This document shows positions 1-63,385 of a stretch of DNA of 64,000 bases, piece after piece. Every line of letters starts with the position of its first letter. The stretch's first letter is position 1. The notes below the pieces were generated by a model. The model was not told the origin of the DNA, ran no database searches, and was given only the letters and a program-made list of their open reading frames with translations. A program made the position numbers and the translations under genes. This DNA comes from an uncultured archaeon. GTDB taxonomy: Archaea; Thermoproteota; Nitrososphaeria; JACIWG01. The DNA is taken from contig CALHLD010000014.1 of the NCBI GenBank assembly GCA_938034445.1, positions 4,907 to 68,906 of the forward strand. The letters are read 5' to 3'.

Positions 1-1210
1 CCTCTCTGACCGGCATTCCATTAAATGGCCCACAATTTTCTTTCATTATCCCCGTATGAAATTCTTTACTATACACTATTTCTGTAGCCTTTTCAGCTTC
101 TCTATCATTCTGATCTCTTACCCTCATCTGCTCCACTATCTCAATAGCTGGATATTCTCCGAACCCTTCAACTTTAATTATTGAAATTGGTTTTATTTTG
201 TCAACTATTTTCTTTAAATTTTCGTTTGAACTTTTTTGTAAATCTCTTAACGCTAACCAATCATATGGTGCATGTGCTGGTACACTGTATACTACTCCTG
301 TACCGTATGCTGGATCAATAAATGTTGCAGGTAAAATTGGTACTTTATGGCCTGATAATGGGACAATACATTCCCTTCCTACAAGTTCTTTTCCATAAAA
401 GAACTCAATTATTTCAATTTTTCTTTCTTGTTCGACAAATTTAGTTAATGTTTCTTTGCTAACTATAAGATTCTTATCTCCCACTTTCACCTTTGCATAT
501 TCTCCATCCGGAAGTATCCAAACATTTGTAGCACCATAAATTGTTTCCGGTCTGAAGGTTGCTGCTGCTAAAAACGCATCATCAATTTTAAAAAACACAA
601 GATAAAATTCTTCAGGAGAAACTCCTTCTCCTTCTAGTCTATCATGATCCCCTGTAGGGCTTTGATCGAAGGGGCACCATACAACTGGATGGGATCCCCT
701 TATAACATACTTTTTATCCCTTAGTTTAAGATACTGCCATTCTATGAATTTACTGAATCCCTTATTATAACTTGTTGTAAAAAATTCTCTGCGCCAGTCT
801 ATAGAAAGTCCAAGTTCATATAAGGCTTCCTTGCTTACTTTTGTATAGTATTCTGCCAAGTTATAAGGTGACGTAAACTTCTCAACTTCATTAAGTGGTA
901 TTCCATCAATTTCTACGAATGCTCTAATTACTGCTGGGTCACCCTTTTTTAATCGAACTGATTGTCCAGCCACTGCTTCACCTGTCCAATGCCATGCAAA
1001 AGGAAATAAAACATTATAACCCTTCATTCTCTTGTATCTTGCAAAAGCATCTAATCTTGTGTAAGTAAATGCGTGACCAATATGTAATGGTCCATTCATG
1101 TATGGAAAAGGAGCGTTTACAAAAATTTTTTCTTTAGAATAATCTCTATCAGCTTCAAATACCTTGTCCTTTTTCCAAGCCTCTATCCATTTTTTTTCAT
1201 ATTGTAACAT
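1..1210 (-). CDS. leuS: Leucyl-tRNA synthetase, N-terminal ~400 codons (5' end of gene in window; ORF runs off the left edge)
   Basis: Own translation of the minus strand from ATG (1210..1208) is open to position 1: MLQYEKKWIEAWKKDKVFEADRDYSKEKIFVNAPFPYMNGPLHIGHAFTYTRLDAFARYKRMKGYNVLFPFAWHWTGE... Class I HIGH motif plus DWRREF, VVWCPFD, TFRPETIYGATNVW and SVPAHAPYDW blocks typical of archaeal-type LeuRS. Absent from ORF track because it is edge-truncated. Confidence 0.85.
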   Translation of the reverse strand, partial: MLQYEKKWIEAWKKDKVFEADRDYSKEKIFVNAPFPYMNGPLHIGHAFTYTRLDAFARYKRMKGYNVLFPFAWHWTGEAVAGQSVRLKKGDPAVIRAFVEIDGIPLNEVEKFTSPYNLAEYYTKVSKEALYELGLSIDWRREFFTTSYNKGFSKFIEWQYLKLRDKKYVIRGSHPVVWCPFDQSPTGDHDRLEGEGVSPEEFYLVFFKIDDAFLAAATFRPETIYGATNVWILPDGEYAKVKVGDKNLIVSKETLTKFVEQERKIEIIEFFYGKELVGRECIVPLSGHKVPILPATFIDPAYGTGVVYSVPAHAPYDWLALRDLQKSSNENLKKIVDKIKPISIIKVEGFGEYPAIEIVEQMRVRDQNDREAEKATEIVYSKEFHTGIMKENCGPFNGMPVRE

Positions 1211-3975
1211 TAACTGTTCACACTCTTCTCCTTTAAATACTCTATTAGTTTATCTTTTACTAGATTTAATTTATCAATATTTCTTCCTCCCCCTCTACCA
1301 AACCTCTTATCTCCACCAGCTGCTCCATTAAGTATCTTCGCTATAAAATTTGCAGTGTCTCTTGCGATAATATTTTTTTCCTGAGCCTGTTTGCCTGAAA
1401 ATACTACAACTTGAACAACATTGTTTAAAGGAATTAGTGCACAATAGAGTAAATCCTGTATTTCCTCTATCGCAGCACTACCGATTTCAATATGTGTGCT
1501 CTCATCTAAATCACTATCTACTATATAATACAATCTTATTCCTGAAAATGTTTCCGATTTTTCTCTAATGTAGGGTAACGAGTATTCAGATAATCTTTTT
1601 GAATACCTTTTTACCCTTTTCCTTGTCTCCTCATTTTCTCTAATAATTTTTTCAAGAGCTTCTGCTACTTTCTCTGTAGGTGTCTGCATTTTCCTTGATA
1701 TATCCTTTAATATTCCAAAAGCCTCCTGAACCTTTTCAAGAGCCGCTTTACCAGCCGCAAACACTATTCTTTCAATACCATCTTGAATATGCTCCACTTT
1801 AACTATCTTAATAAATCCAATTTCACCTGTGTTTAAAACATGTGTTCCTCCACATGCTTCCACATCATGATCTCCTATCTTTATTACCCTTATTTCTTTT
1901 CCTGGTACAACTCCACCCTGGTAAAGTCTGTAACCATACTTTCTTTCTGCCTCTAATCTAGGTAAATTATAAATTTCTACTTGAATATTCTTTCTTACTA
2001 TTTCATTAGCTATTTCCTCTATTCTTTTAATTTCTTCATCTGTAATATTTGTATAATGTGTAATGTCTAAACGTGCCTCTTTAACATCCTTTTGCGCTCC
2101 CGCTTGCCAAACATGTTCCCCTAAAACTTTCCTAGCAGCACCATTAATTATGTGTGTTGCAGTATGATGTATTGACAATTGCTCCCTCCTATCTTTATCG
2201 ACATATCCTGTAATTTCCGTGTTAGGAGGTGGCGTATACTCAACCTCATGCACAATTACCCCCCCAATCTTTTTAACATATCTGACAGCAGTCTCCCCGT
2301 CTTTCCAGGTGATTTTTCCGATATCAGACAGTTGTCCTCCACTTTCTGCATAAAATGCTGTTTTATCTAAAATCACATTATTCTTATGTACGTATATTAC
2401 TCTTGCATTAAACTGTAAAAGTTTCGGGTTTTCATAAAAAAGTTTTTCAGTAGGAGGAACCTTTTTTTCTAAAATTATTGTCTCAAGCTCATCTTTTTCT
2501 TCCACTTCTATTGTCTTTCTAGTATGCATTTTTATTATTGAAGAGAAAAAATCTTGTGGAATATTGCTGGTAAGTCCTAATCTCATTGCCTGCTCCTTGA
2601 GCTGCATAGGATGTATTCCATGTGACTCATATGCTTCGACAATCATTTCCTTAGGTACTTCCCTTTTTCCTTCTTTTAGTAAATTATTCAACTTTTTTGT
2701 AAGTATTTCCAACTCTCTCTCTAGTGTCCTCTTATATTTTTCAATTTCTATTTGCGCTAGTTTAAGTATCTCATTCCTATTAATTTCTATGTTCCTAAAA
2801 TATTTTCCCCAATAATCTATTTGATATTCTAGTAATTCAATAAGTTGGTTTTCTCGTTCAAATTCGGATAATATTCGATAAATTCTTCTTAACAACATTC
2901 TTGCCAAATATCCTGTTTTGACATTTGAAGGAACAACACCCTCAGCTAATAAGAAAATTAATGCTTTACTATGATCTAGAAGTGTACAAACTTTTTCAAA
3001 TGGCTCTATCCTCTTTATGTATTCGTTAACTGAAAAGCCAAGTCTTTTTGCTATCAACTCTCTAGTCTGCCTTGATAAGTTAGGTTTCTCCACATTTAAT
3101 GCTCCTGAAAGTTTTCCTGTTTCCACTAAAATTCTATTTTCACATTCCACTTCCATTATTTTCATAAATTTTGGTAAAAGATGTCCATATATTGCATGAA
3201 ATGCTGTTGGTGTTCCTAAACTGAGCCAAGCCCATCTCTCTAATCCATATCCTGTATCGACTGTCCGGACGATTGTGGGTACCCACTCTCCATTTTCCAT
3301 TTTATAGGACATAAAAACTAAAGTTGAGATTTCAAGCCCATCAACGACAGCTTCAACGGCTGGCCCTGCATTCCCCCCTCCTGACCAAAGGTGTTCTTTA
3401 TAGGAAATTTTATCACTTTTAACTCCGAAAACCTTTGTAATAAGTTCATGATGATATTCTACTGTTTTATCTTTCCAGTAGACTTCCTTTTCTGGGTAGT
3501 TGAATGCATGTGCTCCCCCCATTTCAAATATTGTTAGGTGTCTTCCTGAGGTGATACCTACATTATCTATGTCCTCAAATCGTAGACAAGGTTGGCTAAC
3601 AACTAAGGGGTTTGCTGGTGGCGGAATCTCACCATTTGTTACATATGGTTGAAAATCTACTATACTTGCGATTGTAACTAGAAGGTCATCTCTCCATCTA
3701 CAGACTACAGGGTAAGGTTCAATTATAGTATGCCCGTTTTTATTGAAAAAGCTGATGAATGCTTCTCTAACTCCATTTAAGTCTAGATGAAGAATTGTTG
3801 GAGCATTTCCTATAAACGTGTTTTCAACACATGGGCTTTCTCCACAAACATCAGAAATTCTTTGTGACCAAAAGTATGTACCACAAACTTTACACTTTTG
3901 CCTAATAAACCCATTCTTTTTAAAGTACTCTAACTCAAATTCTTTTGGATCAACAGCCATTACGTTGATACCCAC
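1210..3975 (-). CDS. alaS: Alanyl-tRNA synthetase
   Basis: 921-aa ORF. Class II catalytic core. Editing-domain zinc motifs HxxxH (HTATHI) and CxxxH (CGGTHV). C-terminal Gly-rich DHHA1-like tail. Length and architecture match archaeal AlaRS. Confidence 0.93.
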   Translation of the reverse strand: MGINVMAVDPKEFELEYFKKNGFIRQKCKVCGTYFWSQRISDVCGESPCVENTFIGNAPTILHLDLNGVREAFISFFNKNGHTIIEPYPVVCRWRDDLLVTIASIVDFQPYVTNGEIPPPANPLVVSQPCLRFEDIDNVGITSGRHLTIFEMGGAHAFNYPEKEVYWKDKTVEYHHELITKVFGVKSDKISYKEHLWSGGGNAGPAVEAVVDGLEISTLVFMSYKMENGEWVPTIVRTVDTGYGLERWAWLSLGTPTAFHAIYGHLLPKFMKIMEVECENRILVETGKLSGALNVEKPNLSRQTRELIAKRLGFSVNEYIKRIEPFEKVCTLLDHSKALIFLLAEGVVPSNVKTGYLARMLLRRIYRILSEFERENQLIELLEYQIDYWGKYFRNIEINRNEILKLAQIEIEKYKRTLERELEILTKKLNNLLKEGKREVPKEMIVEAYESHGIHPMQLKEQAMRLGLTSNIPQDFFSSIIKMHTRKTIEVEEKDELETIILEKKVPPTEKLFYENPKLLQFNARVIYVHKNNVILDKTAFYAESGGQLSDIGKITWKDGETAVRYVKKIGGVIVHEVEYTPPPNTEITGYVDKDRREQLSIHHTATHIINGAARKVLGEHVWQAGAQKDVKEARLDITHYTNITDEEIKRIEEIANEIVRKNIQVEIYNLPRLEAERKYGYRLYQGGVVPGKEIRVIKIGDHDVEACGGTHVLNTGEIGFIKIVKVEHIQDGIERIVFAAGKAALEKVQEAFGILKDISRKMQTPTEKVAEALEKIIRENEETRKRVKRYSKRLSEYSLPYIREKSETFSGIRLYYIVDSDLDESTHIEIGSAAIEEIQDLLYCALIPLNNVVQVVVFSGKQAQEKNIIARDTANFIAKILNGAAGGDKRFGRGGGRNIDKLNLVKDKLIEYLKEKSVNS

Positions 3976-7122: not shown

Positions 7123-7938
7123 TTATACCTTTAAAAATTCTATAGAATATTTATCAAAGAATGAGATAAGTTCAGCCAATTTTTTTGACGATATACCTTT
7201 TTTATCTACAAGTGCTCTTGGTTTATTTAATAAGCTCTTTTTAAAAAGTTCAAATAAAAGCTCTTGATCAATATGTTCAAGCGCATATTTTGGAACCATA
7301 TGTCCTATAGCAACATTCTCTTTTCTTATATAATATGAGAATGCTGGCGCATAATGTCCCCCTCCAAAGCCCACAAAAGCCTCTTTTTTTGTAACTTCAT
7401 TTTGGGCCAATGTAATGTAAAGTGCTTCCGCGATCTTTTCACCCAATCTTTTATCTGACCAATGCTTTATATCACTCCCAATCTCTACAAAGAAAAGTGG
7501 AACCTCAATTTCAGTTGGTCCATGATGTGTGACCTCCAATGATACATGTAACCTCTCTTCCCACTTCCCTAGAATGTTAAATAAATTTAGAAAATATTCA
7601 GACATATACCATGGATTAGTGTATGAAATATGCTTAGCTTCTCCACCATATTTTATTTCATTTGATAAATTTCCTGTGGGGTGAACTGTTAATGAACTTA
7701 ACCCTTTGCTGCTTGTATGCTTTGACAATATAATAAGAAGATCAGCATCATATTTTATGTTTAATTTGTCTAAAAATATAGTTTCTATATCCACATAAAT
7801 AAGCTTAATTTTCTTTCTTTCAAACACCTTAAATTCTGTATCCACAGTTTTCTCAGATAATTGAAATTTTTCTATTACATTTTCTGCAATATTTAGGCTG
7901 GCTGGATCCTTATTTGATGCAACAAAAATTATTCTCAA
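7123..7938 (-). CDS. dtdA: D-aminoacyl-tRNA deacylase, archaeal type (DtdA)
   Basis: 271 aa. EVTHHGPTEIEVPLFFVEIGS and GGGHYAP blocks match the archaeal DTD family (PF04414). Confidence 0.8.
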   Translation of the reverse strand: MRIIFVASNKDPASLNIAENVIEKFQLSEKTVDTEFKVFERKKIKLIYVDIETIFLDKLNIKYDADLLIILSKHTSSKGLSSLTVHPTGNLSNEIKYGGEAKHISYTNPWYMSEYFLNLFNILGKWEERLHVSLEVTHHGPTEIEVPLFFVEIGSDIKHWSDKRLGEKIAEALYITLAQNEVTKKEAFVGFGGGHYAPAFSYYIRKENVAIGHMVPKYALEHIDQELLFELFKKSLLNKPRALVDKKGISSKKLAELISFFDKYSIEFLKV

Positions 7939-8885
7939 ATTTTGATTTCACTTTCTTCTAGAAGCAGTAAACATAATAGTCCCTTCTGCACATGTAATCT
8001 GTTTTCTGCTTGGTCAAATACTACTGAGTTTATGCTATCTATCACATCATCTGTAACCTCTTGGTTTCTATGGGCTGGTAAACAGTGCATAAAAATAAAA
8101 TTGCTTTTTGCTTGTTCAACTAACTTTCTGTTAATCTGATATTTTGGCAAAAAAATTTTAAGTCTTCTTTCTTCTTCCTTCTCTTGCCCCATGGAAATAA
8201 ATGTATCTGTGTAGATTATATCCACATCCTTTACAGCTTCCTTAGGCTCGTCAAAAAAGACTATCCTGCTTCCATTATTTTCTGCAACTTTTAAAGCAAA
8301 ATTTATCACATCAGCTGATGGCATATATTCTTTAGGACATGCAATATTAACGTCTATTCCAACATGAGCACAGCCAATAATTAATGTATTACATACATTG
8401 TTTCCATCACCAACGTATGCGAGTTTCAATCCCTTAAATTTCCCTTTTTTTTCTTTAATTGTAAAAAGGTCTGCCAATATCTGACATGGGTGATACTTAT
8501 CAGATAAACTGTTTATAACTGGCACAGATGCTGCACTTGAAAGTCTTATAATATGATCGTGAGAAAATACTCTTGCTGCAATCACATCACAATATCTTGA
8601 AAGTACTCTTGCTGTATCCTCTATTGTTTCACCCCTTCCAAGTTGTAGTTCATTTGATGTCACATCTATGCAATGTCCTCCTAGTTCATGCATCGCTTCA
8701 TTAAAGCTTATCCTTGTTCGTGTACTTGGCTTCATAAATATTGAAACCAGCGTTTTTTCTTTCAAAAGTTTAGGATATTTTCCTTTTTTCCTTTTTTCCT
8801 TCAATTTTGCAGAAATGTCAAGTATCTTTAGTATTTCATTTTGATTTAACTCCATTAAAGATAATATCGATTTTCCTTTTAACAT
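7935..8885 (-). CDS. argF: Ornithine carbamoyltransferase
   Basis: 316 aa. STRTR carbamoyl-phosphate motif and HCLP (ornithine-type, not the HPLP of ATCase). Overlaps dtdA start by 4 nt. Confidence 0.85.
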   Translation of the reverse strand: MLKGKSILSLMELNQNEILKILDISAKLKEKRKKGKYPKLLKEKTLVSIFMKPSTRTRISFNEAMHELGGHCIDVTSNELQLGRGETIEDTARVLSRYCDVIAARVFSHDHIIRLSSAASVPVINSLSDKYHPCQILADLFTIKEKKGKFKGLKLAYVGDGNNVCNTLIIGCAHVGIDVNIACPKEYMPSADVINFALKVAENNGSRIVFFDEPKEAVKDVDIIYTDTFISMGQEKEEERRLKIFLPKYQINRKLVEQAKSNFIFMHCLPAHRNQEVTDDVIDSINSVVFDQAENRLHVQKGLLCLLLLEESEIKI

Positions 8886-10362: not shown

Positions 10363-11037
10363 TTATTTAAAGGCCATTGAGAGCGTCATAAGCTCTGTTC
10401 CGTTAGTGAGATTTCCTACAACAATTCCTTTCGAATTACCTATGATGCCTGATGAAACAAATGGTACTCCGTCGTTTACTGTGCAATGCGTTACCTCTGT
10501 TTTCAGAATTGACCTTATCTTCTCTACCTCTTTATCTGAAGTAAGTGGATGTACTATTGTTCCAACGTTTGTTGCAAAAATCAACGAACCTACTGTACTA
10601 TATCCTGCAATATTCATTCTTTCTGTTGGAACATCAAGTATGTCTTGGATCACTCTTATTTGTGCTGAGGAAAATAAGTTTGAAGCTATTGCTCCTTTAT
10701 CATTTACAGAAATTAAATTTCCAACAGCGGTATAATTTGATGGAAAACGTTCTACAGGTAATCCTGTTTCATTTTTCAAATTTTTTAATTCTTCTTCTTC
10801 GATATATTTTGAAACAAGAATTCCATTGCTATTCATTGCAACTAAAGGTCCTAAAAGTCTTAATCCTGACACAGATGTTCGTATGTATGGTATTTTAAGA
10901 TAATTGGATAGCTTTTCTGCTTTTGTTGGTGCAATGTTTTTAGGAACCAAGACAAATTTTTCATTACACTTCAAAAATATTCCGATGTTACAAGATCTGA
11001 ATAAAGTAAACATGTTTATTTCCATTTTAACCAACAA
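10363..11037 (-). CDS. eif6: Translation initiation factor 6 (aIF6)
   Basis: 224 aa. Pentameric pseudo-repeat of IGxF/IGNLxxxND-like segments typical of eIF6. Confidence 0.8.
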   Translation of the reverse strand: MLVKMEINMFTLFRSCNIGIFLKCNEKFVLVPKNIAPTKAEKLSNYLKIPYIRTSVSGLRLLGPLVAMNSNGILVSKYIEEEELKNLKNETGLPVERFPSNYTAVGNLISVNDKGAIASNLFSSAQIRVIQDILDVPTERMNIAGYSTVGSLIFATNVGTIVHPLTSDKEVEKIRSILKTEVTHCTVNDGVPFVSSGIIGNSKGIVVGNLTNGTELMTLSMAFK

Positions 11038-12870: not shown

Positions 12871-13797
12871 ATGAACCCCTTTAAAAATAGGGATATCGTT
12901 TCCATAAAAGATTTCTCTAGAAACGATTTTCTCTTCCTGTTTGATTCAGCTAATAGGATAGAAAGTTTACAGGAAAAAGAACGTAACCATATTCTTGAAG
13001 GAAAAATACTTGGTTATCTATTTTTTGAACCAAGTACCAGAACCCGATTAAGTTTTGAGGCTGCAATGCTATGGCTTGGTGGACGATGCTTAGGTTTTGC
13101 GGAACCGAAAGTTTCATCAGTAGAAAAAGGAGAAAATTTAGCTGACACAATAAGAACTGTAGAAAATTATGTTGACATTATCGTCATGCGCCATTATAAG
13201 GATGGTGCAGCTAAATTTGCAGCTGAAATTTCGAATAAGCCTATAATAAATGGTGGTAGTGGTACAGAAGAACATCCTACGCAAGCGATGACGGACCTTT
13301 ACACGATAGTTAAAGAAAAGGGTGGAATTGATGGATTAAGGGTAGGAATCTTAGGTGATTTAAAATACGGTCGTACAGTATATTCACTTTTATATGCTCT
13401 CTCACAATTTAATGTTAAAGTGGATCTCATATCTCATCCAATGTTAAGAGTTAGAAGGGAAGTTTTCTTTGATCTAGAAAAGAAGATAGAACTTTCTGAG
13501 CATGAAAACGTGGAAGAAGTTTTACCTGAACTTGACGTTCTGTATGTGACAAGAGTGCAGAAAGAACGTTTTCCAGACCCAGCTGAATATGAGAAAGTAA
13601 AGAGCTCCTATATAGTAAATTTAAAACTTTTAGAGAAGGCAAAAAAGGATCTCATAATATTACATCCTCTACCCAGAATAGACGAAATCTCTTATGATGT
13701 TGATAATTCAAAATATGCAAAATATTTTAAACAGACATTATATGGTAAAATATTACGTTCAGCCCTTTTAGCACTTATATTGGATGCAGATTTCTAA
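12871..13797 (+). CDS. pyrB: Aspartate carbamoyltransferase catalytic subunit
   Basis: 308 aa. STRTR motif and HPLPR (aspartate-type) motif. Divergent from pyrI. Confidence 0.9.
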   Translation: MNPFKNRDIVSIKDFSRNDFLFLFDSANRIESLQEKERNHILEGKILGYLFFEPSTRTRLSFEAAMLWLGGRCLGFAEPKVSSVEKGENLADTIRTVENYVDIIVMRHYKDGAAKFAAEISNKPIINGGSGTEEHPTQAMTDLYTIVKEKGGIDGLRVGILGDLKYGRTVYSLLYALSQFNVKVDLISHPMLRVRREVFFDLEKKIELSEHENVEEVLPELDVLYVTRVQKERFPDPAEYEKVKSSYIVNLKLLEKAKKDLIILHPLPRIDEISYDVDNSKYAKYFKQTLYGKILRSALLALILDADF

Positions 13798-13868
13798 CAA
13801 AAATAATAATCTAGTTAACTTTAAAGCAATAGAAACATAAATATACATCAAAAATTAATGAAAAGTTG

Positions 13869-13930
13869 GTGATGACACTAATCTGCACAGAGGGTTGGAC
13901 ACGCCCTATGAAGAAATGCATCTCACCTGA
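13869..13930 (+). ncRNA. Candidate C/D-box sRNA (2'-O-methylation guide)
   Basis: C box GTGATGA at 13869-13875. 12-nt guide, then CAGA (D'-like) at 13888-13891. GC stem-capable spacer. UGAAGA (C'-like) at 13909-13914. 12-nt guide AATGCATCTCAC, then D box CTGA at 13927-13930. Lies in the intergenic region upstream of tRNA-Leu. Confidence 0.35.
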
Positions 13931-14119
13931 AATTAAGTATACAAACATAATGAATAGATTTTAACACTAATCCTTCTCTACAAGCTAACATTATAAATTA
14001 AACCTTTTATAAGGACCTATTCTTTTAAATTTTATTGCAATAATAAAATTTAAAAGTATTGTTTTCTCCATTTAGAAAACTTTAAATCACAAACATTAAA
14101 ACTCAATAAAACGAGGACT

Positions 14120-14204
14120 GCAGGGGTTGCCAAGCCAGGTCAAAGGCGCAGGGCTTAGAACCCTGTCCCGTAGGGGTTCGTGGGTTCAAATCCCACCCCC
14201 TGCA
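14120..14204 (+). tRNA. tRNA-Leu (anticodon TAG), type II with long variable arm
   Basis: Cloverleaf folded by hand: acceptor GCAGGGG/CCCCTGC, anticodon stem CAGGG/CCCTG with loop CTTAGAA, variable arm CCC-GTA-GGG, T arm GTGGG-TTCAAAT-CCCAC, discriminator A. Confidence 0.88.
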
Positions 14205-14538
14205 TTTTATCCCTTTTTTCATGTGCGTCTTCTTCATATTGTCAGATAATGGTTTAATATTATGTTATAATCACAGTAATTTTTGTTTTGAATAAAAAAT
14301 TTGTATGTTAATATGATTTTATATTGACATTTTGCCAATATTTGTTTTGTAAAGTTTGGTTTGGTTTGCAGATTGTTTATGTAGAATCTTTTTGGTTATC
14401 AGAAAGTTTGATTTTTGCAGATAAAATTTATTTATGGAAATATTTGGCGCTGTTTCAGCGGTTTGAATATGGTCTATAGTACTTGTATCCAACTAAGGTA
14501 TTGGCCAGTTGATCTTGTAGATATGAAGGTGATTCATA

Positions 14539-16320
14539 TTGCTTATTAGGCAGAATGATATTACAATTCAAGGGTTTAAAGATTTATTTTTTAAAATTAT
14601 TAGGCTTAAAGAGAATGCTGGTTTGAAGGCGATATTAGATAACCCTCCTGACCTTTTTGAACGTGCTAAATTATATGGTATACGTTTCAAAAATGGTTCA
14701 TGGGGGTGGGCTTCAAACATATGGCATAGGTCTGCTAATGGAACTGTTGTTGTAGAAGATGATAGTGAACTTTTGCCTGAATACAAGTTTTTGATGATGA
14801 GGGTTTTAGAACATATTCTAGCTCAAGGTCCATTGATCCAAGTTGATTGTTATCTTGGTTCTGAAGGTTCTCCGGTAAGAATGCATGCAAGATTATATTG
14901 TGATCCACAGTTTCCAGATATTGCCTACCGCTGGTCTCAAATAAATTTTCCTGCACCTTCAAATGAGGAACCAGATGTAATGTTATTTGAAGTTCCACAT
15001 TATCTAGGAAATCCTAATATTCCAGGAACAAACCAAATGTTGAGGGTATTACGTTTTCCATATCACAATTATACAATAGTTACTTGCAGTTCCTATCAAG
15101 GTGAGGTTAAGAAAGGTTTTCTCTCGCACTGGATCTATTTTGTTTATAAAAAAGGTGGATGTGGTGAGCATGCTGCTTTAAGAGAGTTCAATGTAAAAAC
15201 TGTCGAAGGAAAAGTTAAGAGAATAATTATGTGCGTGTGGGGTTTGACAGGTACGGGGAAATCCACTCATGGCATGTATGTTTTTGGTGAGCATAATAAA
15301 CATCTGTTCATAAAACAGTTTGGTGTAGATCCGACATTATATGTGTCTGAGCAGGTGATAAGGAATGATGATGTGGTTGCAATTTTTGAGGATAGAGTTT
15401 ATGGTTCTGAAAGAGGTTCGTGGACAAAAACTGAGGATGTAAATGAATATCAACTTCCAATATTAAAGGCTGCAATGTCCCCTAAAGCTTTACATGAAAA
15501 CACGGAATTTGATGCTGAAGGTAACCCATGTTTAGATGGAAAACTTTTCCAATACTGTGGCTCCCCTAACAAAAATGCTAGAAGTGTGTTTGATTTAGCT
15601 GATACAGGATACTTTGACGGTAAAATTGACTCTAGTGGGCCATTAAATACAATTGTATTTATTAGCCCAGGTAATCTTTGTGATTATGCTTGGGTTAAAA
15701 TTGAAGATATAGCTTTTGCTGCAAAGGTTCTAGCTGATGGGCGTACAGTAGGGCATCCAGCACAATCCCTTTCAGTAGTAGGAAAGGAAATTTATGAGAC
15801 AAGATATTGTCTGCCATTTACCATGGGTGTTAAAAGTACAATGCATGTGATAAGATTTTACGAAATTTTAAAGAAGTTTAGAGAAAAGGGCCACCATTTT
15901 GAAATATATATGTTAAACACTGTAGGTAGAATTGGTGCAAGGTACGAATGGGTTGAAGAAAGGTTAGGTGAAAAGACTTTTAAGATGCCAGTTACAAAAC
16001 TTGAATTAAATTCTAACGGTATTCCTAAGCCTATAGGAGGCACAAGTCCAACAATAGAGGAAACAGAACTTTTTCTCCTTCAAGCAGTTAGAGGCGCAGT
16101 TAAATACGACTTACACCCTATTTGGGGAAATAAGGTTCTTGTTCCTGTAAAGGTTGAAGGTCTTTCTGGAGAAAGGTTAAAAGAATTGAATCCTCTATCT
16201 TATCGCACTTTAAATGAACTAGAAGAACTTGTCAAAGCTCAAATCATAAAAAGTAAATATTTCTTGAATGTACAATGTCCAGGATTGCCCGAAGAAATAT
16301 TGAATTCAATGGACTTCTAG
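14539..16320 (+). CDS. pckA: Phosphoenolpyruvate carboxykinase (ATP)-type, divergent
   Basis: 593 aa. Kinase-1a P-loop GLTGTGKSTHG (cf GLSGTGKTTLS). SSYQGEVKKGF (cf GGTSYAGEMKKG). ERGSWTKTEDV (cf EGGCYAKTIKL). NARSVFDL (cf NTRVSYPI). IYMLNTVGRIGARY (cf AYLVNTGWNGTGKR). TTG start. Confidence 0.7.
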   Translation: MLIRQNDITIQGFKDLFFKIIRLKENAGLKAILDNPPDLFERAKLYGIRFKNGSWGWASNIWHRSANGTVVVEDDSELLPEYKFLMMRVLEHILAQGPLIQVDCYLGSEGSPVRMHARLYCDPQFPDIAYRWSQINFPAPSNEEPDVMLFEVPHYLGNPNIPGTNQMLRVLRFPYHNYTIVTCSSYQGEVKKGFLSHWIYFVYKKGGCGEHAALREFNVKTVEGKVKRIIMCVWGLTGTGKSTHGMYVFGEHNKHLFIKQFGVDPTLYVSEQVIRNDDVVAIFEDRVYGSERGSWTKTEDVNEYQLPILKAAMSPKALHENTEFDAEGNPCLDGKLFQYCGSPNKNARSVFDLADTGYFDGKIDSSGPLNTIVFISPGNLCDYAWVKIEDIAFAAKVLADGRTVGHPAQSLSVVGKEIYETRYCLPFTMGVKSTMHVIRFYEILKKFREKGHHFEIYMLNTVGRIGARYEWVEERLGEKTFKMPVTKLELNSNGIPKPIGGTSPTIEETELFLLQAVRGAVKYDLHPIWGNKVLVPVKVEGLSGERLKELNPLSYRTLNELEELVKAQIIKSKYFLNVQCPGLPEEILNSMDF

Positions 16321-18394: not shown

Positions 18395-19423
18395 ATGAAA
18401 ATTGGTATATTAACTGGCGGCGGAGACTGTGCAGGACTTAACGCTGTAATAAGGGCTGTAGTTAAGCGTTCTGAAGAATATGGTTGGGAAGTTTTAGGCA
18501 TAAGATATGGTTGGCGTGGGTTAATGGATAGTGATGTTGTAAAACTTTCTTTTAAAGATGTAGCTAACATTCACAGAATTGGTGGTACAATACTAAAAAC
18601 TTCTCGAACTAATCCCTTTAAACATGCTGGCGCTCCTGAAAAGATACTTGAAAATGTTAAACGACTTGGTTTGGATGCCATCATAGCTGTAGGCGGTGAT
18701 GACACATTAGGTGTCGCTGCAAAACTATTTAAAATGGGCTTAAATGTTGTCGGTGTCCCAAAGACCATGGACAATGATATTTCTGCAACAGATTATACTT
18801 TTGGGTTTGATTCCGCAGTAAATGAGGCTATGCATGCCTTAGATAATCTTATGACAACCGGAGAATCCCATGATAGAGTTATGGTTGCTGAAGTTATGGG
18901 CAGGCATGCTGGATGGGTTGCTGCTTACGCTGGAATAGCCTCTGGCGCTCACTTAACACTGGTTCCTGAGGAACCATTTGACCTTGATGAAGTTATATCC
19001 TTTATAAAAAAGAGGTATGAAAGGGGCGAACGTTCTACACTCATAGTCGTAGCTGAAGGTGCAGTAATGAAAAACGTGTCTTCTACATTCGTTAAAGAAG
19101 GTAAAGTTGACGAATTTGGTCACATAAAACTTGGCGGTATCGGCCAATTTCTTGCAGAGGAAATTGAAAGAAGGACGGGATACGAAGTTCGGTCTGTAGT
19201 ACTTGGTCACACAATAAGAGGTGGTTCACCTACAGCCTTTGACAGAGTGCTATCAAGCAGATTTGGCTTAGCGGCTGTAGAGCTTGTGAAGGAAAGAAAA
19301 TTTGGTTTTATGGTCGCATTAAAGGGTACTAGTATCACATATGTAAGTTTAGACGATGCAGTCTCCAAAATGAAGTCCCTTGATCAAGAAACATATAATG
19401 CGCTTAAAGCTCTTTCTTATTAG
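18395..19423 (+). CDS. pfk: 6-phosphofructokinase, PfkA family (residue pattern suggests PPi-dependent)
   Basis: 342 aa. MKIGILTGGGDCAGLNAVIR. GGDDT (Asp where ATP-PFK has Gly). PKTMDNDI (Lys where ATP-PFK has Gly). MGRHAGW. Confidence 0.85.
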   Translation: MKIGILTGGGDCAGLNAVIRAVVKRSEEYGWEVLGIRYGWRGLMDSDVVKLSFKDVANIHRIGGTILKTSRTNPFKHAGAPEKILENVKRLGLDAIIAVGGDDTLGVAAKLFKMGLNVVGVPKTMDNDISATDYTFGFDSAVNEAMHALDNLMTTGESHDRVMVAEVMGRHAGWVAAYAGIASGAHLTLVPEEPFDLDEVISFIKKRYERGERSTLIVVAEGAVMKNVSSTFVKEGKVDEFGHIKLGGIGQFLAEEIERRTGYEVRSVVLGHTIRGGSPTAFDRVLSSRFGLAAVELVKERKFGFMVALKGTSITYVSLDDAVSKMKSLDQETYNALKALSY

Positions 19424-19451: not shown

Positions 19452-19757
19452 TTAATAGGAAATGACATCTATAATCTTTTTCCCCTCTAGTAGTTTACTT
19501 AATTTCTGCTGCATCTCATGAGTGCTAGAGAAAATAAGGTTCTCCTCTTTTCCCTTGTCGTAGACTATTGTTAGCACATACTCTAAACCTGTTTTGTTGG
19601 CAAAAAATTTTGCTCTATTTCCATCCAAATCTTCAATTTCTATCCTTAATCCTTCATCACTTCTCAGTTGGTTAATGAGTTTCATGAGTTCTTTTTCATT
19701 CTCCCTTTTTTTCCATGGGATATAATTTGTGTAACATTCGTTTGACATATTATGCAC
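19452..19757 (-). CDS. Hypothetical protein (101 aa)
   Basis: Clean ORF with good coding periodicity. No motif I recognise. Confidence 0.4.
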   Translation of the reverse strand: MHNMSNECYTNYIPWKKRENEKELMKLINQLRSDEGLRIEIEDLDGNRAKFFANKTGLEYVLTIVYDKGKEENLIFSSTHEMQQKLSKLLEGKKIIDVISY

Positions 19758-19794
19758 ATATACTTATATATAATCAATTTTTTAAGCTTTAATT

Positions 19795-20964
19795 ATGTTA
19801 CTCTACACTACCAATCTTCGGAAATTAACAAAGATTAGACCACGTTCAAGGCGTGCAATTAGTATTCAAGTTTGTGGTCCAACAGTTTATGATGGATTAC
19901 ACATTGGTCATCTAAAAACCTTCTTTTTCTTTGACATATTAGTTCGTTTTCTAAGGCACTTAAATTATGACGTTAAATTTTGTCTAAATTTTACAGATAT
20001 AGACGAAAGTGTATTTGAAAAGGCTGAGAGAGAAGGTTGCCCGTTTAATGTTATATCAGAAAAATTCTCTTCGCTTATCTTATATACCTTAAAAAAGTTG
20101 AATATAAATACACCAAACTTCTTTCCAAGGTCATCTGCCTACATAAACCATTATATCTTGCAGATAAAGAAACTCCTATCACAAGGTTTTGCTTACAATG
20201 TTAATGGCAACATTTTCTTTGAATTTGAAAAAATATATGATAGGGGACCTGTCTCAGGTTTTGATAAATCAACTTTATATGAATTAAGATTCGACTCCTA
20301 TGCAGGTAAAAGGTCTCCCATAGATTTTCTTCTCTGGTTTAAAAGTAATTTGAAGCCAAATTGGGACTCTCCTTGGGGTATTGGTCGACCAGGATGGCAT
20401 TTACAAGATGTAGTAATAGCTCATGAAATATTTAATGGGCCTCATGATGTTCACGGAGGTGCAATTGAACTTGTTTATCCTCATCACGACTTTATTGAAT
20501 GTTTAGGTGCTGCTATCGAGAATGTTAAACCTTATGTACCTTATTGGGTGCACACTTGTATCTTAACAATTAAGGGGAAAAAGATGTCAAAATCCTTTGG
20601 CAATATCGTTTATGCTGAAGATGTATTGAAAAAGTTTTCTCCAGAATCTCTTAGAATCTATTTTCTTTCAACACCAAGAGATAAAGTTACAGAATTTTCA
20701 ATGGATTCCCTTGAGCATTTTGAAAATGTTGTTAAAGAAATAAAATCTAGGCTTTCTAACTTAAGCATGTCCTATTCTAAGCCTCCAAATCATTTAATAG
20801 GAATAAAAAAACAGTTTTTTAAAAATTTATCAAATAATATGCAAACATATAATGTAATAGAATTACTCATATCTCTGATAAGGGATTGCTCAAGGTATAA
20901 TGTAAATCCAATATTTTTAGCTGACATCTTCAAAGTTTTAGGTTTAGAAACACTCCAAAACTAA
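19795..20964 (+). CDS. Cysteinyl-tRNA synthetase-like class I paralog
   Basis: 389 aa. VCGPTVYDGLHIGH (HIGH motif, cf CysRS VCGITVYDLCHIGH). FTDIDE. WDSPWGIGRPGWH. PHH. KMSKS at 263-267. Helical anticodon-binding-like tail but about 70 aa shorter than bacterial CysRS. The Cys209-equivalent in WHIEC reads WHLQD. Confidence 0.7.
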   Translation: MLLYTTNLRKLTKIRPRSRRAISIQVCGPTVYDGLHIGHLKTFFFFDILVRFLRHLNYDVKFCLNFTDIDESVFEKAEREGCPFNVISEKFSSLILYTLKKLNINTPNFFPRSSAYINHYILQIKKLLSQGFAYNVNGNIFFEFEKIYDRGPVSGFDKSTLYELRFDSYAGKRSPIDFLLWFKSNLKPNWDSPWGIGRPGWHLQDVVIAHEIFNGPHDVHGGAIELVYPHHDFIECLGAAIENVKPYVPYWVHTCILTIKGKKMSKSFGNIVYAEDVLKKFSPESLRIYFLSTPRDKVTEFSMDSLEHFENVVKEIKSRLSNLSMSYSKPPNHLIGIKKQFFKNLSNNMQTYNVIELLISLIRDCSRYNVNPIFLADIFKVLGLETLQN

Positions 20965-20969
20965 ATTTA

Positions 20970-21377
20970 CTATATGCCATAAACTTCTCTTAACTTCTGT
21001 CCCAAAATATCCTTGCTAACCGCGCCTACAATTTTTTCAACCACTTTACCTGACTTAAAAAAAATGATCGTAGGCACTCCCATGATAAAGAATTTCTCAG
21101 CAACTTCTGGACTTTGGTCAACATTTAATTTTGCAAATTTAATAGATGGCGAAACCTCCTTAGCGAGCTGCTCGAATATAGGCTTCATCATTTTACATGG
21201 TCCGCACCATTCAGCAAAAAAGTCTACAACAACATTTTCATTTTCGTTTATGAATCTTTCAAAATTTGTAAAATCTAAAGTATATACTAAATTTTCTTCA
21301 ACACCTTCTTTACTGCTTTTTTTAATTATATCCAAATACTTTTTTCTCAGTATTTTTTCTATCTCGTTGTCTTCCAT
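20970..21377 (-). CDS. trx: Thioredoxin
   Basis: 135 aa. WCGPCK active site in thioredoxin fold context. Confidence 0.9.
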   Translation of the reverse strand: MEDNEIEKILRKKYLDIIKKSSKEGVEENLVYTLDFTNFERFINENENVVVDFFAEWCGPCKMMKPIFEQLAKEVSPSIKFAKLNVDQSPEVAEKFFIMGVPTIIFFKSGKVVEKIVGAVSKDILGQKLREVYGI

Positions 21378-21563: not shown

Positions 21564-22463
21564 GTGAAGAAATATTTTAGACTTTGTTATGTAACAAGTG
21601 TAGGACAGGATGGTTTACAGTCTTTTTCTTATGCTCTTCCATCTCTTTCTAAAAAACAATTCTATGACATAGTTAATGAACTTACTTACAATGGCTTTCA
21701 CCTTAAAACTCTATTTCTTAAACCTGGGGTTAGATTAAAGGGTACTATTGCTCTTAATTGGTTAAAGGATCATAAAACAAATTTTCCACCCTACTCTGCT
21801 ACGCTATACTTTAGGTCCCGTTATAGAAGTTATATCAAACTTTATAGTAGTGGAAAGATTATATCCTTTTTCCCACTAGAATCGTATATAGTTAATTTTT
21901 TGAAAAATGTCATGCGTTATGAAAGAGTGTTAAGGTTCTATGAACTTAAACCAATTAATAGGTATTTTGAAAACAGTTACTTCATACTAAATTGGTTTAA
22001 TGATGAACTAAAAATTTTTCTTAAAAGTAGATTCGAGTTACCGAGGTCAGCTTGGCTTAATAATAGAAAAACTGAGTACTATTATATTCTTGAAGATGAA
22101 CTTATAATTTTAATGAAATTATGCAAAATTCTTAAGCCAGAAAGAATCGAATGTCTTTTCAATTTTCCGATCGAAGAGGTCTCCATTCCAATCATAAAAC
22201 CTGGCTCAAGACCAATGTTTAAGACTGAAACTTCATTCCACAAATTCCTTAATCTAATAGAGGACCTTTTATCAAATTACGAATTTCCCATAAACTTAAA
22301 GAATAGAAAATCTTTTATTACTTTCGATGACTCGAGTATAATTTTCAAAAAATTGAACTCAGAACTGGATTATGAAGGACTATTATCTATATTTGGGGAA
22401 TTAAAAAATCATTGCTTTGACTCATTTCACATATTTAGCTCCTATCATGAAATAAAAATTTAA
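21564..22463 (+). CDS. Hypothetical protein, aromatic-rich (299 aa)
   Basis: Long uninterrupted ORF. Very high F/Y/W/K/N content. No recognisable catalytic or binding motif. Confidence 0.45.
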   Translation: MKKYFRLCYVTSVGQDGLQSFSYALPSLSKKQFYDIVNELTYNGFHLKTLFLKPGVRLKGTIALNWLKDHKTNFPPYSATLYFRSRYRSYIKLYSSGKIISFFPLESYIVNFLKNVMRYERVLRFYELKPINRYFENSYFILNWFNDELKIFLKSRFELPRSAWLNNRKTEYYYILEDELIILMKLCKILKPERIECLFNFPIEEVSIPIIKPGSRPMFKTETSFHKFLNLIEDLLSNYEFPINLKNRKSFITFDDSSIIFKKLNSELDYEGLLSIFGELKNHCFDSFHIFSSYHEIKI

Positions 22464-61639: not shown

Positions 61640-63385
61640 TTGTTCTCGGAAAAGGAAGTTGAAGAACTTATAAGAAAGTATGCTCTAGAAAATGCTGTAA
61701 AGTTTGGGGGCAAGTGTAATCCTCAAGCTGTCTTAGGTAAAGTTTTAGGTGAAAGGCCTGAATTAAAGTCCAGAGCTAAGGATCTTGCTAAACTAGTGGA
61801 GGAAATCTCTGATCAAATAAATAGTATGAGTTTAGATAGTCAAAAAAATCTTTTATCCCAATATTCTTTTGGAGAAAGGCAGCCTCAACAAAGGAAGGAG
61901 GAAAAATTTTTACCTCCACTTCCTGATGTTGAAAAGTATGGTAAAGTTGTTACACGTTTCGCTCCAAACCCGGACTGTGTGCTTCATCTTGGTTCTGCAA
62001 GGGCAATAATATTATCGCATGACTATGCAAGAATGTATGATGGTAAGTTTATTTTAAGGTTTGAAGACACTGACCCAAGACTGAAAAAGGCTTCACTTCA
62101 ATTCTATGATTCAATTAAGGAGGATCTGAAATGGTTAAAATGTGAATGGGACGAAGAATATGTTCAAAGTGACCGTTTACCAATATACTATGAATTTGCT
62201 AGAAAACTTATTGACGTTGGAGGTGCATACGTTTGTACATGCGAAAGTGAAATGTTTAAGAAACTTTTGATAGAAAAAATGCCTTGTCCTTGTAGAAATC
62301 TTTCTATAAAAGAGAATCTCGAACGTTTTGACAAGATGTTAGATGGAACCTTTGATGAAGGGGAAGCTGTTCTTCGAATAAAGACTGACTTAAACCATCC
62401 TAATCCAGCGGTAAGGGATTGGCCTGCATTAAGAATAGTGGACACAAGTAGGTATCCTCATCCACGTGTTGGCTCAAAGTTTAGGGTTTGGCCTCTCTAC
62501 AATTTTTCAGCAGGCCTCGACGATCATCTGATGGGGGTAACACATATTATTAGGGGAAAGGAACATTATACTAACATGGTTCGTCAAAAATATATGTACT
62601 CTTACCTTGGATGGTCTTATCCTACAGCCATACATTATGGTAGACTTAAAATCGAGGGAGGTGTTTTAAGTAAGTCTAAGATTATGCAAGGAATAGCTAA
62701 AGGCTTATACAGTGGTTTCGACGATCCAAGACTTGCAACCTTTAAAGCCCTTAGAAAGCGTGGCGTTCTTCCTGAAACTATAAGACAGATTATTTATGAG
62801 GTAAACATTAAACCTGTTGATGCAACTATAAGTTGGTCAACTTTATTTTCTATAAATAAAAAGCTTGTTGACCCTATAGCTCCCAGATATTTTGCAGTAT
62901 TCAATCCACTAATTTTGGCTATAAAAGGTTTTGATGAAGAACGGCAAATAGTTTTGAGAAAGCATCCTAATGTTGAATCTATGGGCTACAGAAGTATTCA
63001 TCTCACTCCAGAAGATGGTGTATTAAAAGTCTATATTAGTGGAAATGATCTTGAATTGATCAAAAAATGTAATGTCTTTAGACTAATGGGTTTAGCCAAC
63101 ATTACAGAATTCGATTTAAAGTTTTCTCATGCAGAAGCTAAAGTGCACAGTTTTGATATTGAAACCGCAAAAAAGTTAAATGCGCCACTAATACATTGGG
63201 TTCCAGTAACGGACTGTGTAAAGGTTCAGATGATTACCTCTGATGGAAACTTGATTGAAGGTTTTGGGGAAAAGAGTTTGGCTGATGCACCTATTGATTC
63301 AATAGTACAATTAGAACGTGAAGGTTTTGCTAGAATTGATAGTAAGAAAGATAATACGGTTAAATTATATTTTTCTACAAGATAG
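61640..63385 (+). CDS. gltX: Glutamyl-tRNA synthetase, archaeal type
   Basis: 581 aa. HLGSAR (HIGH). VLSKSK (KMSKS). Archaeal/eukaryal GluRS N-terminus. TTG start. Confidence 0.88.

Follow-up and report, generated by a model that had tools for sequence, protein, structure and literature searches.

A short cysteinyl-tRNA synthetase homolog of an uncultured Nitrososphaeria archaeon as a candidate MshC-like cysteine ligase

We analyzed a stretch of 64,000 nucleotides (here called the window) from an uncultured archaeon (Nitrososphaeria; JACIWG01), which spans positions 4,907-68,906 of contig CALHLD010000014.1 in assembly GCA_938034445.1. A gene at 19795..20964 (+), with an ATG start, encodes a 389-amino-acid protein that resembles cysteinyl-tRNA synthetase (CysRS). 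TACK archaea have a wider family of short CysRS homologs, apparently undescribed so far, of which this protein appears to be the most diverged branch; a literature search turned up nothing on short CysRS of archaea, on the assemblies involved, or on Marsarchaeota genes for low-molecular-weight (LMW) thiols or CysRS. It departs from CysRS in the loss of a zinc ligand (Glu238 in E. coli) together with a changed helix after the PHH motif, in the absence of the anticodon-binding domain, in a profile score below the CysRS threshold, and in the nontranslational gene context of the wider family. The first-pass annotation of this DNA had proposed that the protein was not a housekeeping CysRS and was possibly a ligase of the MshC type. 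That proposal is partly supported: the conclusion is favoured, though unproven, while its main argument, an Asp in place of a zinc-binding Cys, failed, and the other departures now carry it. By analogy with MshC, there is about an even chance that the protein is a cysteine-activating ligase which serves a non-tRNA acceptor in thiol or redox metabolism.

All class I CysRS motifs that had been listed for the 389-amino-acid open reading frame were found in the sequence and in the alignments: C27 within VCGPTVYD, H36-I-G-H39, the block WDSPWGIGRPGWH (residues 190-202, W190 to H202), P229-H230-H231 and K263-MSKS267. HIGH and KMSKS were invariant or nearly so across the alignments. Pfam tRNA-synt_1e covered residues 16-308 (E = 6e-76), no match to DALR_2 or CysS_C was recorded on the protein in Pfam, and the start codon was backed by homologs of the same length (389-397 amino acids). 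The protein has a Rossmann catalytic core with HIGH and KMSKS, a CP domain, a stem-contact fold and a helical bundle, and the alpha/beta domain at the C terminus with which CysRS reads the GCA anticodon is missing. An AlphaFold (AF2) model, which was confident (pLDDT 95, pTM 0.93), shows both the stem-contact fold and the helical bundle. In a Foldseek comparison with the PDB, the protein matched CysRS (1U0B, 8QHP) with a TMq of 0.88-0.89 and MshC (8HFN) with a TMq of 0.89. The chain ends right after the helical-bundle motif VLGLE (...VLGLETLQN). The shortened C terminus was thus confirmed, with about 58 residues that are present in 89 of 89 full-length relatives missing, compared with the earlier estimate of about 70.

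The closest relatives form a clade (P0001-P0018 and P0121-P0124; 389-397 amino acids) from hot-spring metagenome-assembled genomes (MAGs) named "Nitrososphaeria archaeon" and from metagenomes. Among the assemblies with clade members are GCA_026413865.1, GCA_029776065.1, GCA_038874315.1, GCA_038830645.1, GCA_038888175.1 and GCA_038865805.1. Its members are 51-100% identical to the window protein, and below the clade the next matches, among the 120 best database matches, fall to 31-39% identity. One member, P0018 (285 amino acids), carries a frameshift inside KMSKS (GGKKCRNQ...), within a run of A; the gene may be a true pseudogene, or the shift may have arisen in the assembly of long reads. Conservation was read from a MAFFT alignment of 127 sequences, with 22 members of the clade, 89 full-length archaeal CysRS and 11 other short forms. 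Gly28, Thr67, Trp201, C27, D205 and H230 were invariant in the clade down to 51% identity. The features noted for the window protein are fixed in no fewer than 22 clade sequences, the most distant at 51% identity, and the gene is under purifying selection; they are thus not due to chance.

The zinc ligands of E. coli CysRS are reportedly C28, C209, H234 and E238, and its cysteine substrate is said to be contacted by the Gly29 carbonyl, Thr68, Trp205 and three of the zinc ligands. In E. coli numbering, taken from the 1LI5 alignment, H234 is the first His of PHH and E238 is the second Glu of ENE. Asp205 of the window protein paired with Cys209 in HMMER alignments with three solved CysRS as well as in the 127-sequence MAFFT alignment. 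The Asp that the first-pass annotation had placed here was therefore borne out, and neither type of alignment put a Cys at this position. The predicted zinc and cysteine site of the window protein consists of C27, D205 and H230, with Ile234 at the Glu238 position. Ile234 was assigned to this position because the alignment from PHH to YW needs no gap between the window protein and its nearest full-length relatives, in which the spacing is likewise 18 residues. The HMMER pairwise alignment with E. coli CysRS, which is one residue shorter between PHH and YW, contains a gap and pairs Glu235 with Glu238; the assignment used here is that of the nearest-relative comparison.

The Asp itself turned out to be no sign of a remodelled recognition site, since it is the normal variant of a large subfamily of archaeal CysRS. 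The full-length archaeal CysRS nearest to the window protein mostly have WHIED, always with PHHEAEIAQ, and carriers of WHIED include proteins named cysteine--tRNA ligase by the Prokaryotic Genome Annotation Pipeline (PGAP) in MAGs of Bathyarchaeia, Korarchaeum and Thaumarchaeota. WHIEC with PHHENEIAQ was found in about 10 of the 120 best database matches, one of them from a bacterial contig, and in E. coli. The CysRS alignments inspected from the PDB search all had Cys at position 209.

The earlier observation that the Glu238 equivalent is not conserved did stand. This position is Ile or Leu in 22 of 22 clade members and Glu in 89 of 89 full-length CysRS and 11 of 11 other short forms. The whole helix after PHH differs as well, reading PHH-D-[F/C]-[I/L]-E-[C/T]-L in the clade and PHH-E-[A/N/S]-E-I-[A/T]-Q in the full-length and other short forms, with the clade substitutions E236D, E238I/L, I239E and Q241L. 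Beside the Asp ligand, I207L, E208Q and A211V are fixed in the clade. A zinc-independent variant, which had also been considered, is not indicated, since three ligands are left, as many as in MshC.

MshC is the L-cysteine:GlcN-Ins ligase of actinobacterial mycothiol synthesis (NCBIfam TIGR03447; PDB 3C8Z, 8HFM), and for the comparison we used residues 224-413 of the Mycobacterium smegmatis protein, taken from the PDB search output. MshC, a class I ligase derived from CysRS, has HIGH and KMSKS like the window protein and is likewise built of the core, the stem-contact fold and the helical bundle without the anticodon-binding domain. The C-terminal end point is also common to MshC (...ALLGVDL-COOH), the window protein (...VLGLETLQN) and the other short archaeal forms (for example ...ILGVDLT), all of which stop just after an (I/L)LG(V/L) motif. 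The window clade and MshC both have three protein zinc ligands and no Glu at the E238 position: the position is Ser in MshC (WHVEC, PHHEYSAAH) and Ile in the window protein (PHHDFIECL). The zinc of MshC is held only by C43, C231, H256 and the substrate thiol (PMC9736012).

The differences from MshC are also clear. TIGR03447 scored the window protein at 194.5 bits against a cut-off of 485.1, and archaeal CysRS are closer to it in sequence. The second zinc ligand is Asp in the window protein and Cys in MshC, and the HYR and DDLDTP motifs, still found in MshC, are gone from the window protein. No mshA, mshB or mshD-like gene lies near the module in the clade, and, compared by pathway description, the MshA-D pathway has no counterpart of the dedicated partner of about 100 amino acids described below. 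A 2020 review reported neither MshC homologs nor mycothiol in archaea (PMC7278568).

We then compared the distance of the window protein from CysRS. The NCBIfam cysS model TIGR00435 gave it 288.4 bits against a cut-off of 340; the full-length P0083 scored 500.8 bits, and three other short forms scanned with this model scored 375-408 bits, all above the threshold. Because of the score below the cut-off, clade members carry the PGAP name "class I tRNA ligase family protein," while the Joint Genome Institute (JGI) labels two of them cysteinyl-tRNA synthetase. Among 88 positions that are at least 95% conserved in the 89 full-length CysRS, the clade kept 70% and the other short forms 88%. At the 41 such positions from E. 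coli residue 201 on, MshC kept 80%, the other short forms 92% and the clade 65%, and the HYR and DDDFNTP motifs of CysRS are gone from the clade. In this part of the sequence, the clade is thus further from CysRS than MshC, a proven non-tRNA ligase. The closest sequences to the window protein outside its clade, at 31-39% identity over the catalytic core, are the Asp-type archaeal CysRS (for example P0083 of a Thaumarchaeota MAG, P0025 of Bathyarchaeia and P0064 of Korarchaeum). They share with it the Asp ligand within WH(I/L)(E/Q)D, the CP domain, the stem-contact fold and the helical bundle; unlike them, it is without the anticodon-binding domain and Glu238, keeps fewer near-invariant positions, and scores below the cysS cut-off.

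The clade is not alone in its truncation. Eleven other short homologs of 374-412 amino acids (P0052, P0056, P0070, P0099, P0101, P0106, P0108, P0112, P0026, P0074 and P0116), which carry the PGAP name cysteine--tRNA ligase, stop at the same point. Unlike the window clade, they keep the canonical PHHEAEIAQ helix including Glu238, and the three of them that were scanned pass the cysS threshold. Assemblies GCA_038733605.1 and GCA_037025365.1 and MAGs of Marsarchaeota G2 are among the carriers of such forms. In a neighbor-joining bootstrap tree built on the catalytic core alone, and so independent of the truncation, the clade was recovered at 100%, eight of the other short forms at 92%, the clade with ten other short forms at 75%, and the short-form group including P0116 at 60%. 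Short forms from different classes grouped together and not with the full-length CysRS of their own lineages. Such clustering, with common partner genes, is what one would see for a paralog or a mobile module. Among the other short forms, P0099 (L093, 8585..9808 (-)) has HMGN for HIGH and GWPGWH for GRPGWH and is still above the cysS threshold. Its partner P0135 was identical on contigs in 38 collection blocks, 11 of which have contigs of more than 1 Mb, and the host of P0099 and P0135 is a widespread organism with a GC content of 42%.

The gene of the window protein lies in a conserved module. Divergent from it, at 19452..19757 (-), is a gene for a small partner protein of 98-101 amino acids without a Pfam match. 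The 37-bp spacer between the two divergent start codons (19758..19794), putatively a shared bidirectional promoter region, measures 46 bp if the partner starts at the ATG used in P0128, and 31-38 bp in other clade members. A 92- to 103-amino-acid partner was encoded divergently just upstream of the short CysRS homolog in every locus read (the window, L001/L002, L005, L097-L099, L006, L007-L009, L090/L091, L092 and L093/L094), and so wherever the context of the other short forms was readable. The window partner was homologous to those in L001, L005, L006, L007, L090, L092, L093 and L097. The partner family comprises 94 clusters when grouped at 90% identity, and about 99 representatives when grouped at 50%; named sources include MAGs of Marsarchaeota G2, Thermoprotei, and Nitrososphaeria or Thaumarchaeota. 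Relatives of Marsarchaeota have been brought into culture (PMC12542729). All members stand alone, with no fusions and no Pfam match, and Asp33, Gly35 and a C-terminal Tyr are invariant in 68 aligned sequences. We considered the partner as a detached anticodon-binding domain and rejected this, since hhalign against a profile of the CysRS C-terminal domain gave a probability of 0.2% and there was no fold similarity either. In the model the terminal Tyr closes a beta-strand and does not form a flexible tail, which argues against a ubiquitin-like carrier role; a role at an interface is possible.

On the other side of the gene, at 20970..21377 (-), lies a gene for a 135-amino-acid thioredoxin with a WCGPC active site (Pfam Thioredoxin, 1e-30). 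It is convergent with the CysRS-like gene, their coding ends are 5 bp apart, and it holds the same position in all clade loci. Beside it throughout the clade is a clade-specific gene at 21564..22463 (+) for a 299-amino-acid protein (hyp299) with no Pfam or NCBIfam match and an ortholog of 38-39% identity in L001; its membership of the module is uncertain. A reading of hyp299 as a diverged GNAT acetyltransferase was dropped (hhalign probability of 0.2%, no BLAST match to the GNAT of the sister lineages). Coordinates and the Pfam scan agreed with the earlier description of the neighbours as a thioredoxin and two hypothetical proteins. In L001/L002, which are relatives of 54% identity, an IS200/IS605 element (a Y1 transposase and a TnpB/OrfB-like gene) lies just downstream of the module at 13461..14970; this element is absent from the window.

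In four lineages outside the clade (L006, L007, L090, L092 and L093), a GNAT acetyltransferase gene follows the CysRS homolog so closely that its start overlaps the stop codon of the homolog or almost touches it. The two genes are translationally coupled, in an order like that of MshC and then MshD in mycothiol synthesis. The GNAT product has 248-251 amino acids, or 437-438 with a C-terminal HExxH extension, and matched Pfam Acetyltransf_10, _7 and _1, mostly at or above the gathering score; none of these proteins had an NCBIfam match to MshD. The extended forms (L090 9554..10870 (+), L092 3044..4357 (+) and L093 7279..8595 (-)) carry about 180 additional residues with a conserved HELVHVKQF and weak matches to DUF6782 and Peptidase_M78, which are putative metallopeptidases; they may combine acetyltransferase and amidase functions. 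In two lineages (L090, L092 and L093) a 109-amino-acid thioredoxin-fold protein with WCPHC, unrelated to the window thioredoxin, follows the GNAT. L006 and L007 have no adjacent thioredoxin-fold protein, and the feature is thus frequent and not universal. In these two loci (L006 6705..9564, L007 7387..9085), the module is preceded by a DUF1464 gene (actin-like ATPase family) and a PTPS/QueD-type gene, and L006 additionally has a FolE2-type GTP cyclohydrolase gene. A link to pterin or 7-deazaguanine metabolism is possible there, and it is not common to the other lineages.

The evolutionary rates were compared between the window and the orthologous loci L005 and L097, whose overlapping stretch holds no bona fide synthetase. 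The dN/dS of the CysRS-like gene was 0.12-0.15, with 0.12-0.14 against two orthologs, which indicates purifying selection and is 3-4 times that of the neighbouring PFK and aldolase genes. Amino acid identities were 82-83% for the CysRS-like protein, 68-73% for the partner, 81-83% for the thioredoxin and 76-77% for hyp299; slower neighbours, at 89-98%, were PFK, aldolase, PEPCK, a carbamoyltransferase homolog (12871-13797) and ribosomal proteins. With dN/dS values of 0.12-0.22, compared with 0.02-0.11 for most other genes, these four genes (CysRS-like, partner, thioredoxin and hyp299) rank with the most rapidly evolving of the region's real genes. This faster rate is modest evidence for an accessory module over an essential synthetase. 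Together with the invariant HIGH, KMSKS and cysteine pocket, the dN/dS of the CysRS-like gene points to a protein that is still functional. Two antisense open reading frames, at 10545..10898 (+) and 18953..19210 (-), overlap the eIF-6 and PFK genes with a dN/dS above 1.5 and a very low dS; by this signature they are noncoding frames that shadow real genes.

Beyond the anatomy, conservation, family and module observed directly, the favoured cysteine ligase would work as follows. The enzyme would bind L-cysteine through its three-ligand zinc site and form Cys-AMP, and the cysteinyl group would be passed to a nucleophile other than the 3' end of a tRNA selected by its anticodon, by analogy with MshC most probably the amine of a small molecule. 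The product would probably feed thiol or redox metabolism together with the adjacent thioredoxin, and the head-to-head partner of about 100 amino acids would probably be a subunit or a substrate-presenting factor. The coupling of ligase and GNAT in the sister lineages mirrors the passage from MshC to MshD, in which cysteine is ligated and then N-acetylated. The window clade has lost the GNAT neighbour and its helix after PHH is rebuilt, so that it probably uses another acceptor or makes another product. More tentatively, and at rather low confidence, the short homologs, the Tyr-terminated partner, the GNAT with or without HExxH, and the thioredoxin fold might form an undescribed cysteine-ligase system of TACK archaea that makes a new N-acyl-cysteinyl LMW thiol or cysteinylates a dedicated acceptor. 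The window clade would then be a neofunctionalised branch in which the GNAT step was given up and the zinc site changed to suit another acceptor or product.

Several observations weigh against the MshC-like ligase. The score far below the TIGR03447 cut-off makes the likeness to MshC an analogy and not orthology. A Pfam scan of open reading frames in the window, all immediate neighbours included, gave no GNAT, glycosyltransferase or deacetylase, and tblastn of the GNAT from the sister lineages against the window and the clade loci gave no homolog. The grouping of the short forms as one family has only moderate neighbor-joining support, and long-branch attraction is possible. The other short forms, at 375-408 bits, score and keep most CysRS-invariant positions as true CysRS would. 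The neighbourhood is a housekeeping one, with AlaRS, LeuRS, GluRS, DTD2 and ribosomal protein operons. The CysRS-like protein could also be the only CysRS of its genomes: no full-length cysS, SepRS or SepCysS came to light in a genome with this gene, the search for a second cysS having covered the 64-kb window.

These points lead to the strongest alternative, which we consider possible although it has clearly less than an even chance: a minimal, anticodon-blind housekeeping CysRS that chooses tRNA-Cys through the discriminator base U73 and the acceptor and core of the tRNA. The partner might then help tRNA binding in trans, and the loss of Glu238 would be tolerated, since three ligands and the substrate thiolate make a complete tetrahedral zinc site. 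U73 alone can confer cysteine identity on minihelices (PMC9976931), which makes an anticodon-blind archaeal CysRS conceivable. Consistent with such an enzyme, the catalytic and cysteine-pocket residues are all kept, the AF2 model contains both the stem-contact fold and the helical bundle, all clade genomes seen have the gene at one and the same locus, many genes nearby serve translation, and two members bear the JGI label. In the window, tblastn found no second cysS, the sole weak class I match being the N terminus of LeuRS. The full-length candidates that we traced as the host's cysS came from other organisms: P0082 was rejected by its GC content of 48%, P0115 by its bacterial context, and P0019 by its GC content of 27.5% and a tetranucleotide r of 0.90, compared with 0.95-0.99 for self-comparisons of the window. 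The net charge of the tRNA-facing domains, tried as a proxy for tRNA binding, was uninformative. Against a housekeeping role stand the score below the cysS equivalog threshold, the retention of fewer CysRS-invariant positions than in MshC with the loss of HYR and DDDFNTP, and the dN/dS of 3-4 times that of PFK and aldolase. The clustering of short forms of different classes with shared partners is again the pattern of a paralog or mobile module, the tight GNAT and thioredoxin-fold context of the sister lineages is unusual for such a synthetase, and the partner resembles the CysRS anticodon-binding domain in neither sequence nor fold.

Synthetase cores without an anticodon-binding domain are known to be redirected to noncanonical acceptors, as in GluQRS/YadB and EpmA/PoxA. 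GluQRS/YadB is a truncated GluRS that glutamylates queuosine, and such tRNA-modifying paralogs are established; the acceptor of EpmA is a protein partner; and GNAT-fold enzymes that use aminoacyl-tRNA exist. These systems derive from other parent synthetases, and the present evidence points to neither a tRNA base nor a protein as the acceptor. With these precedents, the window protein might be directed to tRNA in a nontranslational role, either in a GluQRS/YadB-like modification or in the supply of Cys-tRNA to a GNAT-fold aminoacyl transferase. The PTPS/QueD gene beside the module in two sister lineages and the FolE2-type gene in one of them both belong to 7-deazaguanine or pterin synthesis, and nearly every CysRS-invariant position is retained in the other short forms, as would fit such a role. 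We regard it as unlikely, since QueD and FolE2 are absent from the window clade and two other lineages, no tRNA-Cys gene was found near any module locus, the GNATs match ordinary acetyl-CoA-type Pfam families at or above gathering scores, and nothing points to a specific tRNA target.

A changed amino acid specificity, for example for another thiol amino acid in place of L-cysteine, is suggested by the fixed clade substitutions that cluster around the zinc site, where Glu238, Glu236, Glu208 and Gln241 are all replaced. It is nevertheless quite improbable, since the residues that reportedly contact cysteine in E. coli CysRS are invariant in the clade and MshC, which has no Glu there either, shows specificity for L-cysteine. 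The possibility of a leftover CysRS paralog that is decaying or has lost catalysis, to which the lowered profile score, the faster rate than neighbours and the P0018 frameshift might point, can be set aside almost entirely in view of the dN/dS of 0.12-0.15, the full length of at least 20 sequences, the invariance of HIGH, KMSKS, the zinc ligands and the cysteine pocket down to 51% identity, the AF2 pLDDT of 95, and the chance that the frameshift in the A-run is an assembly error.

The major LMW thiols of most TACK archaea are an open question, and a conserved archaeal module of a CysRS paralog with the architecture of MshC, a GNAT and thioredoxin-fold proteins is a testable candidate for a pathway. 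If the protein is instead the only CysRS of its genomes, it would be a natural example of a CysRS that is blind to the anticodon and holds its zinc with three ligands, which would bear on how cysteine identity and the discrimination between Cys and Ser are achieved with less machinery. For annotation, short forms with the canonical site are named cysteine--tRNA ligase and members of the clade are not, so that counts of cysS in archaeal MAGs may err in both directions.

The region around the CysRS-like gene is dense in translation genes. The N-terminal part of an archaeal LeuRS (1..1150 (-)) runs off the window start, followed by AlaRS (1210..3975 (-)) and a DTD2-type D-aminoacyl-tRNA deacylase (7123..7938 (-)); GluRS lies at 61640..63385 (+). 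Two paralogs of the aspartate/ornithine carbamoyltransferase family, at 7935..8885 (-) and 12871..13797 (+), are 4 kb apart. In L097, the ortholog of the gene at 12871..13797 is followed by a gene for a PyrI regulatory chain, and one of the two paralogs is probably an ATCase and the other an OTCase.

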